From positions 1-64,000 of IMG/VR virus record IMGVR_UViG_3300020336_000004: 64,000 nucleotides of DNA; one strand, given 5' to 3'. Below are positions 2,120 to 47,039 of the stretch, piece by piece (position 1 is the stretch's first letter; each line of letters begins with the position of its first letter). A program made the position numbers and the translations under genes. Under the pieces are notes generated by a model. That model ran no database searches and was not told the origin of the DNA. It was given only the letters and a program-made list of their open reading frames with translations. Source of the stretch: a virus. Taxonomy: Duplodnaviria; Caudoviricetes.

Positions 2120-2337
2120 TTTTTACGTCCTCTAAACTTTGGTGCGCCTGTCATATATGGTTTTGAAAACCATAGTTTAAACCATTCAGCATCGCCCGGT
2201 TTTAATCCTAACTTCTTTTCTTTTGCTTTAAGTTTTGTAGCTGTGATACTAGGATTTTCGTCGATCTGGTATTCTGTGTAACCTTTGAATTCGTTTACAC
2301 CAGCAAGTTTCTTAAGTTCATCAATACTTGAATACAT
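2116..2337 (-). CDS. Hypothetical phage protein
   Basis: 73-aa ORF, start/stop overlap with neighbours; ELKKLAG motif. Confidence 0.6.
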   Translation of the reverse strand: MYSSIDELKKLAGVNEFKGYTEYQIDENPSITATKLKAKEKKLGLKPGDAEWFKLWFSKPYMTGAPKFRGRKK

Positions 2338-40213: not shown

Positions 40214-40514
40214 ATTTTAAAGAATTTAGTTTATTAATAGCAGATTCACAGCGAGCCAGTTTACGTTCTAAAACATTAATTGCGCCTCGCTGTTTCTTTA
40301 TCTGCTCTTCTAAGCTATTTACATATCGATGACTAGGAACTCTTTGTTCTAACCCATCTTCTGATACCATTACGAAATGATCAACACCTTGTCCTTTAAG
40401 ACCACCCGCTATGCGGTTAGGATTTTTTGTTGATACGTTTTCATGCGTTTTCGAGCTTACGTTCTTGCTGTTGTACATTCTGTTTAAATAGTTCATAGTG
40501 TTCCTTTGCGTCAT
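40203..40514 (-). CDS. Hypothetical coiled-coil protein
   Basis: KNPNRIAGGL motif, C-terminal coiled coil. Confidence 0.55.
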   Translation of the reverse strand: MTQRNTMNYLNRMYNSKNVSSKTHENVSTKNPNRIAGGLKGQGVDHFVMVSEDGLEQRVPSHRYVNSLEEQIKKQRGAINVLERKLARCESAINKLNSLKSIS

Positions 40515-41535
40515 AATATTTATACAAGTCTATACTTGCTAGATTTTTACATTTAGATTCACACATGATATCTGCATAAGGTAAAAATGACAGTGCCCAA
40601 TCATTAACAAGTTGATTAGGATAGTAATCGCTGTGAGCTCGTAATTTAGCTTTCTTATAACCTGCCTCTAATAATGTATTCATATCGGGCATAGTGTCGT
40701 GTGCAAAGTCTGCAGGTAGATGTTCGTCTCTACTGTAAGAATAATGTATTGCTGGACGTACACCACGCCACGAATCTATTACGCGAGTAAATCTATCGTC
40801 GGTGGGTAATATGTATTCACCTTCACGGCACCAGTGATGGTGTATGTCAAGTACGAGAGCACAGGTGTCGACAAGTTCAAGACTTGCGTCGATGCCCCAT
40901 TTGTTCTCGTCATTTTCGATTGTAATCGTGTTTCTCGCTTCTGGAGAAAGTCTCTTGTTGACAACGTGCTTGATACCGGCTGGACCTTTACGACCGGATA
41001 TGTGGACATTGCACTTGAAGTCTTGGAATGTTTGGCCGTAGCCCATCCATCTGATGCAATCAACATGATATTCAAACTCCTCTATTGATCTTTCGACGAT
41101 ATCATCGTTGTCACTGGCCAGTACTGTAAACTGACCGGGATGCATCGATAATCTGACATCGAGGGCTCTTGCTGTTTCTCCGACTTTTCTAAATGCTTTT
41201 TCAGCGAATGCACGTACATCATTACGCTTCCAATAATAACTCCAATCAGACTGGGTATAAACAGGAAGCACATCACTACCCAATCGTACCATCCGAAGTT
41301 CAGGGGGAAGTTCTCCAACATATTTTATTAACCTTTCATATGACGCAATGTTATGGACCATAATGTCCCATAAGCGTTCTTCAGCAACGTCGCGTGTCTG
41401 TCTATTCAGCCACTGTACAGTAGTGCTTCGAGTATTTAGCGGTCGCTGTATTTCCTCAAGTAATTTCTTTTTTTGTGTTTGGTCAGGATGCATGTACTTA
41501 CATGCAAAGCCTATACGTTTAATGTCCGTGTCCAA
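40441..41535 (-). CDS. uvsE: UV damage endonuclease UvsE/UVDE
   Basis: RIGFAC, RLSMHPGQF, IENDE, LDIHHH, AHSDY, MCESKCK. Confidence 0.9.
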   Translation of the reverse strand: MDTDIKRIGFACKYMHPDQTQKKKLLEEIQRPLNTRSTTVQWLNRQTRDVAEERLWDIMVHNIASYERLIKYVGELPPELRMVRLGSDVLPVYTQSDWSYYWKRNDVRAFAEKAFRKVGETARALDVRLSMHPGQFTVLASDNDDIVERSIEEFEYHVDCIRWMGYGQTFQDFKCNVHISGRKGPAGIKHVVNKRLSPEARNTITIENDENKWGIDASLELVDTCALVLDIHHHWCREGEYILPTDDRFTRVIDSWRGVRPAIHYSYSRDEHLPADFAHDTMPDMNTLLEAGYKKAKLRAHSDYYPNQLVNDWALSFLPYADIMCESKCKNLASIDLYKYYDAKEHYELFKQNVQQQERKLENA

Positions 41536-41707
41536 AGTGTACCCCAGTAAAATATCCTATTACTAATGACAATGGTATAATAATTAATAAATCTGTTAAC
41601 CAATGTAGTGCGATAGCAAGAGATATAATTTCTTTCCAGTGTAATTTGCATACATCTGCCCAGTGTTTTATACGTTTTGTTATCATAAATTTTTCAATAA
41701 TTTCCAT
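41519..41707 (-). CDS. Small membrane protein
   Basis: 62 aa, hydrophobic C-half. Confidence 0.45.
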   Translation of the reverse strand: MEIIEKFMITKRIKHWADVCKLHWKEIISLAIALHWLTDLLIIIPLSLVIGYFTGVHFGHGH

Positions 41708-42408
41708 GTTTCATTGTAATCTTTTATATTATAACACATTCCTAAGTCCTTGTCAATGATTTCTTTTTTGAGAGGATAGTCATTTCCTGCAGGGTCCATT
41801 CTATCTCCAAAGAAATGTATTTCATCTCTAGGATCAAAGTCAACTAGAATTTGACTTTTATCTTTACCTTTGGGTGAGATATCAATACCTGTTTCTCCTC
41901 CTGGTCTAGCAATTAAATGATCAAATTGGTTATTAAATAATTCTGCAATTATATTTCGTTCGTTATGTTCTTTATCGTATTTTACATACAGTTTACGTTC
42001 ACCTAATGTAGCATTACGTCCTACAATACTAAAGTTAATCATACCGGGTCGTTCTTCAATGTGTAGACCAGTGCGTAATGGAAAAGAACTTTCTTCTAAT
42101 TTATCTTCTAACCACGATCTTTCAAATAAAGATATTTTCCATTCATCTGATCTAATATGTGTTTCACCTTCCCAAATATCACTACCTGAACAGTTGTATA
42201 CACGTTTAGTAAGACTATAAATTTCCTCACCTATCTGTTCTATAGTTTTTTCTTTGTCGCTTCCTGTAACAAGATACACATCATTCTCAGCACAGAAGTT
42301 ACTAAAGAACACAGCAAAGTCACTGTCAATTACTTGACGACTTGGTGTTAGTGTACCATCAACGTCAAATATATAATGTTTTTTTACTTCCAATTTTCTA
42401 CTACCCAT
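41683..42408 (-). CDS. HAD-IIB phosphomannomutase (eukaryote-type PMM family)
   Basis: FDVDGTLTPSR, VTGSD, IEERPGMINFS, GGETGIDI, FFGD...GNDY. Confidence 0.85.
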   Translation of the reverse strand: MGSRKLEVKKHYIFDVDGTLTPSRQVIDSDFAVFFSNFCAENDVYLVTGSDKEKTIEQIGEEIYSLTKRVYNCSGSDIWEGETHIRSDEWKISLFERSWLEDKLEESSFPLRTGLHIEERPGMINFSIVGRNATLGERKLYVKYDKEHNERNIIAELFNNQFDHLIARPGGETGIDISPKGKDKSQILVDFDPRDEIHFFGDRMDPAGNDYPLKKEIIDKDLGMCYNIKDYNETWKLLKNL

Positions 42409-43187
42409 GGGTCATCACAGTTATGAGGATTAGGATCTCCATGAAAAACACAAACCTTACATGTTTCGGGAGGCTTACAATGTTCTACTATTTTAAATTT
42501 TCTATCACCTCGCATACCGCCTGGTAAGAATTGTTTGTCTCTTCTAATTTCCCATTTCCAACTTAGTATCCAATCATCAGGCCAATAAATTGCATTTTTA
42601 TCAGCTTCATACAACCAATCCTGATCTCCGTGCATACGTTTCATAATATTTACGGCACCTTTTTTAAAGCCGGTCCATACATGATCAAGTTGTCCTGTAT
42701 CAAATCTAACAATACTACTATTGTACTTTACCCAGCTAGGACGCATTTTTCTAGTAAAGTCTCTAATTGCACACCACCTGCCTGGTTTGTATGTAAACAG
42801 CTCGTCTATATTGCCACTTAGAATTACATCTAAATCCATATATAATATTGTACCTTTAATAGGTAAGTCTTTAGAAAACATATAAGGTTTGCACCACCAT
42901 CCTGTAAGTTCGGGTGGCAATGGGTGTGTAACAATATTACCGTTTAGTCCTTTTGGATCATCAGTTAAACAAACAAATTGATAATCAAGAGTACAGTTAC
43001 GACTGACCATATCGTATAATCTATTAACATATTCTGAAGAATACTTCTTTCCGTGTTTTAAACTTAACAGAAAATATTTTGGTTGAGTAGCAGGTACAAT
43101 AGTTATACCTGCTTTCTCAGCTTTTATTTTATTTTTTCTTGCTTTGCGTTCAGCTTTTGTTTCGCCGGCTGTATATGTCTTAGCCAT
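42384..43187 (-). CDS. GT-A fold glycosyltransferase
   Basis: GKKYSSEYVNRL, LYMDLDV (DxD), NSS, GDQDW, VFHGDPNPH. Confidence 0.75.
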   Translation of the reverse strand: MAKTYTAGETKAERKARKNKIKAEKAGITIVPATQPKYFLLSLKHGKKYSSEYVNRLYDMVSRNCTLDYQFVCLTDDPKGLNGNIVTHPLPPELTGWWCKPYMFSKDLPIKGTILYMDLDVILSGNIDELFTYKPGRWCAIRDFTRKMRPSWVKYNSSIVRFDTGQLDHVWTGFKKGAVNIMKRMHGDQDWLYEADKNAIYWPDDWILSWKWEIRRDKQFLPGGMRGDRKFKIVEHCKPPETCKVCVFHGDPNPHNCDDPWVVENWK

Positions 43188-43659
43188 CTACAAACGACAT
43201 CTTCTGTACTTGAAAGGGTGTATAGATAGCACTATTTGCACCGTGTTCGCTACATTCAACTGACTCACACCAACAACGGTTATCTGTTCCTTCACGTATC
43301 AGTTTGTCTGCAAATGCCCATGCATGTTCGGCAAATTTTTCTGCACCAACACCGTCAAAAGTTCTAATTTCTGCTAGACCTTTTTCTTCTAGAGCTTTTA
43401 GTGTTTCAAGTTCTGGGTCAGCAATATCAACTGCTGTCTTGTGATCAAATGAATCTTCAAGCCAAGCCTTCAAAGGTTTTAATCCTCCAAAGTCAACAGC
43501 CCAATTTTTTTCATCTAATTCTCTACAACCAAATGTAAACTTAAATGCTAAACTGTAACCATGTAGTAGGTGACAGTGTGAATGCATTGCTTTGGGTTGA
43601 CGGAACACTGCTGAAAGTCCTATATTGTGTCCGTATGTTTTAGTACTGTAGTATGCCAT
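43180..43659 (-). CDS. queD: QueD / 6-pyruvoyl-tetrahydropterin synthase family
   Basis: HCHLLHGYS, VDFGGLK, FDHKT, GAEKFAE, EHGANSA. Confidence 0.88.
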   Translation of the reverse strand: MAYYSTKTYGHNIGLSAVFRQPKAMHSHCHLLHGYSLAFKFTFGCRELDEKNWAVDFGGLKPLKAWLEDSFDHKTAVDIADPELETLKALEEKGLAEIRTFDGVGAEKFAEHAWAFADKLIREGTDNRCWCESVECSEHGANSAIYTPFQVQKMSFVDG

Positions 43660-43716
43660 ATTTTTCTCCTATAAAACGGCGGAGTATTTTAAGAGGGTCG
43701 ACGTATAAGTCCTCTA
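43660..43716 (-). promoter_or_regulatory. Structured queD 5' leader, preQ1-I riboswitch-like
   Basis: AGAGG-ACUUAUACGUCGAC-CCUCU stem-loop, A-rich tail UAAAAUAC, then SD AGGAG. Confidence 0.5.
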
Positions 43717-43733
43717 GTGTTAATAATGTGTTT

Positions 43734-43762
43734 ATTATATTATAAATTGTCCACAATGTCAA
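43734..43762 (-). promoter_or_regulatory. Consensus sigma70 promoter for queD
   Basis: TTGACA-N17-TATAAT. Confidence 0.85.
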
Positions 43763-44315
43763 GAGAAACATTTGAAAAAATCCAGTTATCGGGCAAATTC
43801 CAATCTTTTTTATTGTAGATAGTAAATTTTGTATTTGGAAAACATTCAAATATTTTGCCAATTTGATAAATCCAATATCTAGGATCAACTGCATTTTTGT
43901 GTGAGTCATCATATCCGTGTGTATTTTTATAAATGTTATTTAATTTATTGTCTATACCATATAAATCAAATCCGACTAGATCAACTTTATTGCTCTCTAA
44001 AGCGCCTATCAAAATAGCATACGGTCCACTACCCCAATGAAAAGGATCGTCTGGTCTATTACTTCCTTTATAAGGTAATTCTGGTACAGGGACAACAGGA
44101 TAACTAAAACCACTAAGCCAATCTTTGCGAGTATAAATTACTGGCTTATATTCTTGCTCTAATGCTTCTTTAACCATTCTGCGATCAACGCATACTAGGT
44201 AATCAACAGGATAGTCTCTAAGAACTGCATTACAACCTATAGTAAGATCGTAATCTCTACTCTTTAGGCTTATGTTCTTTCGGCTTTCTCCGTTTCCTAT
44301 TACTAGACAGGCCAT
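43740..44315 (-). CDS. Hypothetical protein, MAF/DUF115 or sialyltransferase-like fold
   Basis: CLVIGNGESR, IGCNA, WGSGPYA, LVGFD. Confidence 0.55.
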   Translation of the reverse strand: MACLVIGNGESRKNISLKSRDYDLTIGCNAVLRDYPVDYLVCVDRRMVKEALEQEYKPVIYTRKDWLSGFSYPVVPVPELPYKGSNRPDDPFHWGSGPYAILIGALESNKVDLVGFDLYGIDNKLNNIYKNTHGYDDSHKNAVDPRYWIYQIGKIFECFPNTKFTIYNKKDWNLPDNWIFSNVSLDIVDNL

Positions 44316-44613
44316 TTAAATCCTCTTTAATACTTTTTACTTCTGTACTTATTTCAGTAAACTTATCTAATGTGGTTTGAATAGATGTAAGGACATCTCT
44401 AATAGATGCCATTGTCCACCACCACCATAATATAGTTATAGAGAAAAATACACACGTTAAAATAATTGACAGTTTTGTATAGAACTCGTTCCATCCAAGG
44501 TAGTCTGTTAGTAATAATAATGCTAATGAAATAAGGGGGAGAGCACTTGCAAGTATAACCCATATACGATATTGTGTAAGTCGTTTAACTAACCGGTTGT
44601 CTTTTCCTAGCAT
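44257..44613 (-). CDS. Two-TM membrane protein
   Basis: Two hydrophobic helices, basic tail. Confidence 0.55.
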   Translation of the reverse strand: MLGKDNRLVKRLTQYRIWVILASALPLISLALLLLTDYLGWNEFYTKLSIILTCVFFSITILWWWWTMASIRDVLTSIQTTLDKFTEISTEVKSIKEDLNGLSSNRKRRKPKEHKPKE

Positions 44614-44625
44614 TCATGATTCTCA

Positions 44626-45735
44626 CTACTTAGATATTTGCCCAAAAGCATTCCACATTCCAGGAGTACCTTCTCTTACACATATCCATCCAACGTAACC
44701 TGACGGTGCCGGAGCATCATTCCATATTATGTCACCTTTAGAATATGTTCCTGAAGTAGGAATATTATTTGCAACTTCAAATTTTTTGTTTTGGAATCTT
44801 ACTGGGCCGCTTGTAGTGATACTTGCATCTTTGGAATAATTTTTAACTCCAACACCAATGCTGTTTTTTATTCTAACATCTTCGTAAATGTCTACTGTGC
44901 CGTTTTTGTCAACTTCAATTCTTGTCGTATCATCAGTGATGATTTGTAGGTTACTAGTTGACCAAGTACCTAATTTAAATTTTTTATCTTCTGTTGGATC
45001 AATAACAAATTCGTGATCAAGAGATCTAATTGCTAATGCTCCATTAGGATCTGCACAACCTAAACCTAATCGTTGTGTATCACTGTCCCAATATACAAAG
45101 TTATCAATATCAACATTGCCATCTACACTAAGATTTTCTAAAGTACCTACTGTTTGTAAGTTACTTCTTACAACTGTATTGCCTAACTGATTTAGTGATA
45201 GAACTTCAGTATTACCTATACTAAAATGTCTATCTCTTTGTAGGTCTACAATTTCACTTGAGAAAAGCCTATCGGGTTTTGATTGTAGTGTAAACTGTTT
45301 AGTAGTTCCTGATGATGGCCATATTAAACCTTTACCAAACGCTGGTTTATTTCCTTCGCTTAAGAACTGTAACGGTTCTGTTCTTTCGTTTCTTATGTCT
45401 GCACTAATTTCATTTACGTGTAATTTAGTAGCAGTTATTTCTCCGTCTACAGTTAGTGCGCCTTTGATGTTTAAACTGTTTTCTACGCTATTAACATGCA
45501 TAGCAGTAACATGTAAACCGTCATTACTTACAGTTAATACAGTTTTGTTTGCTTTATCGTCAATACCTACACTAGAAAAATTAGTAATCTTTCCACCGTT
45601 AATTTTATTACCTGATATTGCTCTATCAAGCGGTTCGGGTGCGACTACAGGCTTGTTCAGTATCTCTTGTAAGGCATCGCCTACACTGTTTAAACCTTCG
45701 CGGAAGTTCTGTGTAATCTCATCATTAGTGCTCAT
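44626..45735 (-). CDS. Probable virion/tail-associated protein
   Basis: Beta-rich, C-terminal GDIIWN...GWICVREGTPG; late motif 5 nt before ATG (45741-45748). Confidence 0.6.
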   Translation of the reverse strand: MSTNDEITQNFREGLNSVGDALQEILNKPVVAPEPLDRAISGNKINGGKITNFSSVGIDDKANKTVLTVSNDGLHVTAMHVNSVENSLNIKGALTVDGEITATKLHVNEISADIRNERTEPLQFLSEGNKPAFGKGLIWPSSGTTKQFTLQSKPDRLFSSEIVDLQRDRHFSIGNTEVLSLNQLGNTVVRSNLQTVGTLENLSVDGNVDIDNFVYWDSDTQRLGLGCADPNGALAIRSLDHEFVIDPTEDKKFKLGTWSTSNLQIITDDTTRIEVDKNGTVDIYEDVRIKNSIGVGVKNYSKDASITTSGPVRFQNKKFEVANNIPTSGTYSKGDIIWNDAPAPSGYVGWICVREGTPGMWNAFGQISK

Positions 45736-45746
45736 GTAAGTATTTA

Positions 45747-47039
45747 TCAGATTGTCTTCAGGAGTATAGTTTCAAGATTTATACGCCCGTTGAGCTTAGT
45801 ATCTGTAGTTTTTATATCATCCATGAACTTACGTAGTGCTACTTTACCTGCACCTTTAAACTCTTTTAATTGTTCTTCAGGCTTACGCATTGTCTTTTGT
45901 ATACTTTCTTCTTCAATAAATCCAATGATAGTAGTACCTTTTACTTGTAGTCCACTACCTGGTCTTTGCATTCTTTGCGGATCTGGATCTTTAGCAACAT
46001 ATTTTCCTATCTTTCGAGTCTTAGTATTAAAGACCCAAAGCTCATTTGCGTATATAATGTCTGCAGGATTAATACTTACTAGATTATATTTGTCATCTTG
46101 TTTTTTATATTTAAGTTTAGCAACAAGTTTTTCTGCACTGTATACTTTTGCTTTACGTGGCCTGCGTGTTGCTTTAGCACTTTCAATTATCATATCACAT
46201 GCAACAAGAACTTTATCGATAGCATTACCCCATAACGTCATTTCTTTTTTAGTTCTATGTGAATATCCTTCTTTTAATTGTTCCCACATGTCTGCTGTAT
46301 GCTCGTCCATCTTTTTAAGCTGAGCAGGAGTAGGCATGTTTAACCAGTCATTAATTTCTTTCCACTCTGGTTGGAAAATGTCTTTGATCTTTCTAGCATG
46401 AGCTTGTGTAACTTTCATCTGGATGAAATGTTTTTTGATATCTAATCCGTCTATTTTAAATGTTTTTGGATCTTCTACAAACCCATCTAACCATATATCT
46501 ATTTTTTCACATGCGGAATATGCCTGTGCTAAAATTCTGTCTTGAATAGATATTACAGGCTTCTTGGCTTCTTTAGCTATTTCTTCATCTTTTTCTTTTT
46601 TAGCTTCTTTACCTGTATCAATAGCAATTTGAATACGTCTTTCTAAAAAGTCTATACTAGATTTAAGTTGTCCACTAGTACCTGGAAGACTATCCCAATA
46701 TTCAGATTCTTTGTTGCTTAGTCTAGGAGCACCCATCATATCCATACGAGCAACAATACTTGCCGTAATGCTTAATGCATGATTAGGTGCGGCTTTGACC
46801 CATCTAATTTGGTCTTCAGTATACTTGTCAGTTTGCTTCATCCATTCGTATACATAATCATACAAGTCTACACGTTTAAAGTGTTCATAGTACCAATCAT
46901 GTGTATGACGTCTAAAGCGATGTATTTGTTCGCCTGACCATTCTTCCCAGCCTTCCCAGCTAGGTTCTTTGAGTTTGGCACCCCTTTGTAACCGCGGAGC
47001 GGCTCTAGGTTTTCTCTTCTTAACTTTCGGTAAGGCCAA
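45747..47039 (-). CDS. Hypothetical T4-like phage protein
   Basis: 430 aa, TTG start with SD; promoter TAGACT-N17-TATAAT at 47072-47100. Confidence 0.65.
   Translation of the reverse strand: MALPKVKKRKPRAAPRLQRGAKLKEPSWEGWEEWSGEQIHRFRRHTHDWYYEHFKRVDLYDYVYEWMKQTDKYTEDQIRWVKAAPNHALSITASIVARMDMMGAPRLSNKESEYWDSLPGTSGQLKSSIDFLERRIQIAIDTGKEAKKEKDEEIAKEAKKPVISIQDRILAQAYSACEKIDIWLDGFVEDPKTFKIDGLDIKKHFIQMKVTQAHARKIKDIFQPEWKEINDWLNMPTPAQLKKMDEHTADMWEQLKEGYSHRTKKEMTLWGNAIDKVLVACDMIIESAKATRRPRKAKVYSAEKLVAKLKYKKQDDKYNLVSINPADIIYANELWVFNTKTRKIGKYVAKDPDPQRMQRPGSGLQVKGTTIIGFIEEESIQKTMRKPEEQLKEFKGAGKVALRKFMDDIKTTDTKLNGRINLETILLKTI

Follow-up and report, generated by a model that had tools for sequence, protein, structure and literature searches.

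A conserved pseudoknot in the leader of phage queD-like genes: a preQ1-I-shaped candidate for a metabolite-sensing ON switch

Introduction

What is the short RNA that precedes a queD-like gene in an uncultured phage, and does it control that gene? The locus lies in a 64,000-nt stretch of DNA (the window, numbered from its first letter) of the IMG/VR record IMGVR_UViG_3300020336_000004, a 95.9-kb viral fragment whose source is likely a marine T4-like myophage of a streamlined heterotroph. A preliminary description, made from the letters of the window, had proposed a variant preQ1-I-like aptamer in the leader that represses queD translation by feedback.

PreQ1 class I (preQ1-I) riboswitches are H-type pseudoknots linked to queuosine genes. 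Their third loop (L3) is A-rich, a U or UU motif lies on the 5' strand of their first helix (P1), and the 3' strand of P1 follows a UC in type I and an AC in types II and III, whose C is the specificity base (PMC11625349). The mechanisms that this review gives for preQ1 riboswitches are occlusion of the Shine-Dalgarno sequence (SD) or termination alone (PMC11625349), and a preQ1-I member is known that regulates translation with its aptamer apart from the ribosome-binding site (PMC10018353). Riboswitches are reported as rare in phages: apart from c-di-GMP-I riboswitches in prophages, a survey came upon just two glutamine aptamers, both in cyanophages, and it raised the speculation that phages rely on classes still to be discovered (PMC5473149).

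Results

The promoter, the leader and the gene

The features that define the locus are:

43757-43762, minus strand: -35 hexamer TTGACA, from the promoter scan, kept in relatives
43734-43739, minus strand: -10 hexamer TATAAT, from the promoter scan, with a spacer of 17 nt to the -35 hexamer
43660-43739: intergenic gap; the stop codon of the upstream gene (43740-43742) abuts the -10 hexamer
43666-43670, minus strand: SD AGGAG, read from the sequence, kept in relatives
43655-43659, minus strand: start codon AUG plus GC, the 3' strand of a predicted start-codon-sequestering helix, which covaries in relatives
43180-43659, minus strand: QueD-like gene of the 6-pyruvoyl-tetrahydropterin-synthase (PTPS) family, 159 aa (Pfam PF01242, PHROG 2389)
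42384-43187, minus strand: glycosyltransferase gene, 267 aa (PHROG 1962, E 3e-27), overlapping the end of queD by 8 nt

The perfect TTGACA-N17-TATAAT promoter of the preliminary description is indeed present at 43762-43734 on the minus strand, and with transcription predicted to begin near 43727 the leader would be about 67 nt long, close to the ~65 nt first estimated. It is the sole 12/12 match within 42000-46000. The scan of that interval returns 16 promoter-like sites, however, against 15.2 expected from shuffles, so a perfect match alone is weak evidence. Among 115 distinct homologous upstream regions the promoter matches at 10 or more of its 12 positions in 100 and perfectly in 61, and the conserved promoter ends 5-19 nt ahead of the first helix of the pseudoknot described below, which places that pseudoknot at the extreme 5' end of the mRNA.

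Read 5' to 3', the leader consists of AGAGG (43715-43711), a 14-nt loop, CCUCU (43696-43692), UAAAAUACUCCGCCGUUUUAUAGGAG and the AUG (43659-43657); both the sequence as first quoted and the AGAGG...CCUCU hairpin are correct. A sequence scan of the leader region shows no terminator.

The assignment of the gene to queD holds at the level of the QueD/PTPS family, with matches to Pfam PF01242 (E 3e-14) and to PHROG 2389, 'QueD-like 6-pyruvoyl-tetrahydropterin synthase' (E 1e-39). The protein scores under the NCBIfam QueD equivalog cut-off (34 versus 89 bits), and a PDB sequence search with it gives no match at E up to 0.001. It carries C-x3-HGY where the corresponding position of E. coli QueD has C-x3-HGH. 

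A pseudoknot common to related phage loci

Comparison of more than 350 related phage loci reveals a common H-type pseudoknot of about 40 nt, which in the window occupies 43715-43676 on the minus strand. Its parts are:

43711-43715, minus strand: 5' strand of P1, AGAGG, pairing with 43692-43696
43705-43710, minus strand: first loop (L1), ACUUAU, its first three nucleotides conserved as (A/U/C)CU and the remainder varying in length and sequence
43699-43704, minus strand: 5' strand of the second helix (P2), ACGUCG (core ACG plus conserved UCG), pairing with 43676-43681
43697-43698, minus strand: second loop (L2), AC, with C43697 invariant and directly 5' of the P1 3' strand
43692-43696, minus strand: 3' strand of P1, CCUCU, identified by the covariation of P1
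43682-43691, minus strand: L3, UAAAAUACUC, 10 nt, built around an AAA-type core and closing with an invariant UC on the 3' side
43676-43681, minus strand: 3' strand of P2, CGCCGU, overlapping GCCGU (43680-43676), the alternative partner of the start-codon AUGGC

Across the family P1 has 4-5 bp, P2 6-8 bp and L2 2-3 nt, and P2 joins the nucleotides just before a conserved UCR to those just after a conserved YGC. L1 is (A/U/C)CU followed by 0-8 variable nucleotides; in 132 distinct cores it starts with ACU (89), UCU (25) or CCU (13), its second and third positions being C and U throughout. All 132 cores have C as the last base of L2. This C is preceded by A in 58 cores, by U in 49 and by C in 16; the nine others have a three-nucleotide L2 (UUC or CUC). 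L3 measures 6 nt in one clade and 10 nt otherwise, with the consensus WWAHAWWYUC or UAAUUC. In the window, the L3 contains a CUCC that can pair with GGAG of the SD, and the SD itself lies 6 nt past P2. In relatives the start codon follows the conserved YCYGC by 18-40 nt, so that their SDs, too, lie outside P2.

The element is a discrete module. IMG/VR has 529 stretches that encode relatives of the protein, and we compared the best 80 of these 529, which are 75-89% identical. In about 64 of the 80 the element sits between a sigma-70-type promoter and the SD; in the other 16 or so the promoter is followed directly by the SD. Gain, loss or replacement of this regulatory module has occurred between close relatives. 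The relatives that lack the motif include L009, L040, L046, L053, L058-L063, L069, L077 and L078. In L075 the leader holds a different hairpin, CTTCGAGT...ACTCGAAG.

Covariation of both helices

Covariation in phage queD leaders had been named as a check in the preliminary description, and the leaders turn out to be conserved, with P1 and P2 both covarying strongly. In the 132 distinct cores the inner two pairs of P1 are G-C, the third is A-U in 69, C-G in 42, U-A in 20 and U-G in 1, and the fourth is G-C, A-U or U-A. In an alignment of 71 sequences (A2), the third pair is AU in 52 and UA in 19.

For P2, 93% of the cells for the first four pairs are paired in 113 distinct cores. Sliding the 3' partner by 1-3 nt lowers this to 31-58%, and none of 2000 partner swaps attains the observed pairing count; this swap count, like the other shuffle counts given here, overstates the significance because the sequences are mutually related, and is not to be read as a probability. 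In the 71 sequences the three central pairs vary in composition: UA 28, AU 26, GU 9, GC 7 and CG 1 for the first, GC 36 and CG 35 for the second, and GC 35, UA 23 and UG 4 for the third. These three core pairs show 27-43 double-sided changes, and slid controls collapse. The covariation score of the same alignment is 0.446 versus 0.136 for shuffles, none of 500 of which reaches it, and slid versions stay at or below 0.20. Inside P2, U43701 stands opposite C43679 as a mismatch that is invariant in the 132 cores. Beyond it lie two more pairs, one of which is C-G in all 132 cores and the other A-U in 90 and G-C in 42, with nothing else seen though the parsing of the cores admitted all four combinations. 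Both states of the latter are present inside the added clades, so the change was not one single event.

The second helix first drawn for this leader was a different one, between CUUAUA of the loop and UAUAGG overlapping the SD. This pairing is possible in the window and is not kept in relatives, where L1 beyond ACU and the bases ahead of the SD vary without compensation, and we have rejected it. The conserved P2 instead joins ACGUCG (43704-43699) to CGCCGU (43681-43676), at least 6 nt upstream of the SD. Folding of the single sequence is uninformative: the minimum free energy of the window leader, -9.4 kcal/mol (z -0.13), is no better than that of shuffles, so thermodynamics alone gives nothing.

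Restriction to phages and to one gene family

A degenerate pattern built from the conserved positions and scanned over viral contigs matches at least 118 of them. In 115 of the 118 matches listed, the next ORF is by blastp a homologue of the QueD-like protein of the window, 36-88% identical to it; the remaining three have no usable ORF call, two of them because the locus ends soon after the motif. The association with this gene is thus exclusive. Starting from divergent QueD proteins (590 and 317 relatives) we find two further clades with equal architecture and other helix sequences.

A covariance model made from the alignment gives one match in the 64-kb window, at 43671-43717 (60.7 bits, E 2e-12), the second-best scoring only 9.5 bits. 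It also gives one match each in three of four other large contigs; the fourth belongs to a clade outside the alignment of the model, and its miss is uninformative. In the window and the contigs with a match, the motif is present once per contig.

The carriers are hundreds of marine and freshwater phage contigs, all of them uncultured. Among 50,697 cultured-phage records there is no DNA match to the locus, and the 108 protein matches are all below 60% identity. The closest QueD-like proteins of cultured phages are 50-56% identical, and many adjoin QueC or FolE. In several freshwater-type relatives (L296, L302, L310, L312, L326, L332 and others), the SD and ATG downstream of the motif open 20-30 extra codons ahead of the region that aligns with QueD; these codons may represent an extended N terminus or a small separate ORF lying between motif and enzyme.

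We also scanned one genome per species for 185,579 bacterial and archaeal species. The 86 pattern matches obtained are about the number expected by chance and have a median G+C of 60%; none of them combines a P1 of at least 4 bp with a P2 of at least 3 bp, and none is followed by a QueD homologue. We judge all 86 to be chance matches. In its consensus form, with these 185,579 cellular genomes scanned, the motif is confined to phages.

Known RNA families do not account for the element either. Searched with Rfam 15 at the gathering score, the whole window yields five tRNAs only. At E up to 10, the region 43500-43900 has no match, the preQ1-I (RF00522), preQ1-II and preQ1-III models included, so that the comparison with the Rfam preQ1 models suggested at the outset came back empty for the leader. 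Twenty related loci that cover the motif classes likewise give no match to the queD-leader motif at the gathering score. Taking conservation, covariation and distribution together, we regard a conserved, phage-specific pseudoknot in the queD leader as established, with very little room for doubt.

A competing helix at the ribosome-binding site

The 3' strand of P2 has a second possible partner. In the minimum-free-energy fold of the window leader, GCCGU (43680-43676) pairs with AUGGC (43659-43655), and CUCC can pair with GGAG, an alternative pairing that had been noticed from the start. Nested folds of the relatives similarly pair the P2 3' strand or adjacent L3 bases with the ribosome-binding region. 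We compared 193 distinct leaders from all clades for the longest helix that the P2 3' region can form with a ribosome-binding site: it averages 6.01 bp with the leader's own site and 5.36 bp with swapped partners (0 of 300 swaps reach the own value), and in 153 of the 193 this helix takes at least 3 nt of the P2 3' strand.

The partner differs between clades. In one clade the helices are 7-9 bp long and covary with codon two, examples being CCAUUAUUA paired to UAAUAAUGG, GCCAUAU to AUAUGGC and CCCAUAA to UUAUGGG; here own partners average 6.6 bp versus 5.88 bp for swapped ones, a value reached in 0 of 300 swaps. In other clades the SD is the partner and changes in step, as in ACUCC with GGAGU or CCUC with GAGG. 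For the window's own clade, the difference between own and swapped helices is not significant (5.43 versus 5.38 bp).

The calculated energies for the window are about -1.9 kcal/mol for the isolated P2 duplex and about -4.9 kcal/mol for the competing helix. The knot and the occluding helix therefore look mutually exclusive, with the knot needing help to win. Because the two share the P2 3' strand, formation of the knot should free the ribosome site, as in an ON switch, a direction that is drawn from predicted alternative helices of 4-9 bp. The feedback repression of queD proposed earlier points the other way: in most relatives the P2 3' strand overlaps the helix that occludes the start codon or the SD, which predicts ON control.

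Gene context and occurrence of the phage

The glycosyltransferase gene that overlaps the end of the QueD-like gene probably belongs to one operon with it. Of 197 loci, 165 encode a homologue on the same strand as the QueD-like gene, and for 126 of those 165 the aligned start of the homologue is no more than 60 nt from where the QueD match ends. In the window, the glycosyltransferase is followed by a phosphomannomutase (41683-42408) and UvdE (40441-41535). One possibility suggested by this conserved pairing of PTPS and glycosyltransferase is that the product is a pterin or deazapurine in glycosylated form.

FolE is encoded in three of five large related contigs (L199, L200 and L201, also G004, G002 and G001) and was not found in the window's 95.9-kb record. 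Near FolE, all three contigs have a phosphoribosyltransferase-like gene, identified by eye from its motifs, and in two of them, L199 and L201, a QueE-like radical-SAM gene, also identified by eye, adjoins it. A QueE-like query has no match in the window's record, and neither QueC nor TGT/DpdA was found in that record or in the five related contigs, a result of little weight in fragments that are all estimated at 21-33% complete. A possible reading of these genes is a FolE-QueD-QueE pathway that leads to CDG and then takes an unusual step.

The folE gene of related phages that bear the motif has a conserved leader of its own, which in L201 (~2150-2235, minus strand), and likewise in L199, consists of a sigma-70 promoter, a hairpin ATAGAC-ATCCTC-GTCTAT and then AACTCGGAGAATTAAATG. 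Pairing of its loop UCC with GGA of the SD could create a miniature H-type pseudoknot in which UC precedes the P1 3' strand. This leader may be a second cis-regulatory RNA of the pathway. A match of the folE leader of a relative to RAGATH-17 (20 bits, where the gathering score of the family is 102) is attributed to chance.

The exact 3.5-kb stretch 42300-45800 is present complete in marine metagenome runs of at least 11 studies, dating from 2013 to 2025, and we conclude from this that the phage population is widespread and persistent and the element ecologically common. The same stretch is partly present in marine metatranscriptome runs. In RNA libraries of one marine sample, contigs extend over 43050-43684 and 43050-43695. 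They take in the first part of the gene after queD, the whole of queD and part of its leader, ending inside the aptamer, and none of them continues into the upstream gene. Coming from contigs that show no start, strand or level and may include DNA carry-over, this gives no more than a weak indication that the transcript begins at the predicted promoter; stretches without coverage carry no weight as evidence.

Discussion

We favour the view that the leader pseudoknot is a metabolite-binding translational riboswitch, preferably with ON wiring, and would put its probability at roughly 0.6. It combines general marks of a riboswitch, namely covarying helices, invariant unpaired bases, a coherent gene and an expression platform that shares nucleotides with the aptamer. 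In such a switch, the 5' end of the queD-like mRNA would form a compact H-type pseudoknot aptamer (43715-43676). Without ligand, the P2 3' strand and neighbouring nucleotides of L3 would engage the ribosome-binding region in pairing and so mask the start codon or the SD. Binding of the ligand would stabilise the weak P2, so that the knot would form and release the ribosome site, and the QueD-like enzyme, probably together with the overlapping glycosyltransferase, would then be made. By analogy with preQ1-I, the invariant junction C suggests that the ligand presents a guanine-like face and is a 7-deazapurine or else a pterin, for instance the substrate of the enzyme. To our knowledge, ON control of a biosynthetic enzyme by a compound of its own pathway would be unusual. 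In its most specific form, the proposal is of a phage-only, preQ1-I-shaped riboswitch class that senses a pterin or 7-deazapurine intermediate, for example dihydroneopterin triphosphate (the enzyme's substrate) or CDG/preQ0, and turns ON the translation of the QueD-like protein and the glycosyltransferase; this full version we hold tentatively, at a little under even odds.

The main rival to the riboswitch is a translational operator, in which the knot would be recognised by the QueD-like enzyme or another phage protein. T4-like phages use RNA operators, ribosomal-protein leaders are a further example of operators in leaders, and a conserved knot whose loop bases are invariant could just as well serve to bind a protein. 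The unpaired invariant nucleotides and the strict linkage to one gene, with QueD proteins 36-88% identical, would fit autoregulation. The leader of T4 gene 32 mRNA is a translational operator of this kind, an H-type pseudoknot that nucleates binding of the gene's own protein product, and we know of no metabolite that it binds. The queD leader would resemble it as an H-type pseudoknot at the 5' end of a T4-like phage mRNA with translational control, although its sequence and linked gene are unrelated. Three observations argue against an operator at the queD-like gene. The RNA consensus hardly changes as the identity of the linked protein falls to 36%; in its junction C and its general architecture the motif looks like an aptamer for a small molecule; and Pfam and NCBIfam searches show no candidate RNA-binding domain in the T-fold enzyme. 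On balance we think an operator unlikely, and take it more seriously than the other alternatives.

Alternatively, the element could be a divergent but genuine preQ1-I riboswitch through which bound preQ1 or preQ0 exerts feedback repression on the translation of queD; this seems to us rather improbable. Like preQ1-I (RF00522), it is a small H-type pseudoknot at the 5' end of a 7-deazapurine-metabolism gene, where it would act on translation. Its P1 of 4-5 bp is topped by two G-C pairs, an unpaired invariant C precedes the P1 3' strand with A (types II and III) or U (type I) ahead of it, and an A-containing L3 follows P1. The preQ1-I member with a separate ribosome-binding site (PMC10018353) also speaks for a place in that family. 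However, RF00522 remains silent on the leader and on the 20 relatives at the thresholds given above. Where preQ1-I has a short U-rich L1, the motif has (A/U/C)CU and a variable remainder; the early remark that the first loop base of the window is A rather than U was right, and its ACU falls outside the U or UU motif. P2 has 6-8 bp with the invariant U-C mismatch instead of 3-4 bp, L2 is just 2-3 nt long, and L3 ends in the invariant UC. In preQ1-I the A-rich L3 runs without interruption into a P2 3' strand that contains or abuts the SD, and bound ligand turns expression OFF by occluding the SD or through a terminator, whereas the SD of the motif lies outside the aptamer and the competition of the P2 3' strand with the occluding helix predicts ON. 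The motif is also found in uncultured phages only. The idea of a preQ1-I-like variant aptamer thus survives for the fold, P1, the junction C, the A-containing tail and the gene, and fails for the family model, L1, the end of L3, P2 and the regulatory logic. We conclude that the queD-leader motif is a preQ1-I-shaped aptamer candidate and is not a member of RF00522.

A structural element that works independently of any ligand, such as a stabiliser that keeps RNases off the 5' end, a standby site or an enhancer of translation, would suit a knot at the extreme 5' end of a transcript, and compact 5' structures can protect mRNAs. A stabiliser, however, needs neither some 15 invariant unpaired positions nor a conserved mismatch or a covarying helix at the ribosome-binding site, and it offers no reason for restriction to a single gene family, so that we give this explanation only a small chance. 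That a chance hairpin merely lies behind a chance promoter, as the single-sequence z of -0.13 and a number of promoter-like sites equal to the shuffle expectation would allow, is refuted by two helices that covary over hundreds of contigs, the single 60.7-bit match in the window and the conserved promoter.

A riboswitch at this position would also differ from those described in related phages. Glutamine (glnA-type) riboswitches occur in cyanophages and in Melnitz-like or pelagimyophage genomes (PMC5473149, PMC9004378), and a Riboswitch Scanner search of pelagimyophages found none (PMC7029224). Pelagimyophages and the OM43 phage Melnitz have also been described with curli-like csgF/csgG loci (PMC7029224, PMC9004378). 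The motif shares with the glnA type that it is a cis-regulatory RNA of marine T4-like myophages with streamlined hosts, as is likely for the phage of the window. Unlike the glnA-type phage riboswitches, which are copies of a bacterial class, it has another fold, gene and family and no cellular counterpart in 185,579 genomes. A literature search that left most subscription papers outside found no description of the motif.

If the riboswitch reading is true, the queD-leader motif would be an undiscovered phage class of the kind that the authors of the phage survey had speculated about: abundant, about 40 nt long, with no cellular counterpart, and with a logic apparently opposite to that of its nearest structural relative. 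It would add a new minimal ON-switch scaffold related to a well-studied aptamer. The identity of the ligand would reveal what the phage QueD-like/PTPS genes make, whether queuosine precursors, modified DNA bases or pterins, and also when the phage needs that product.
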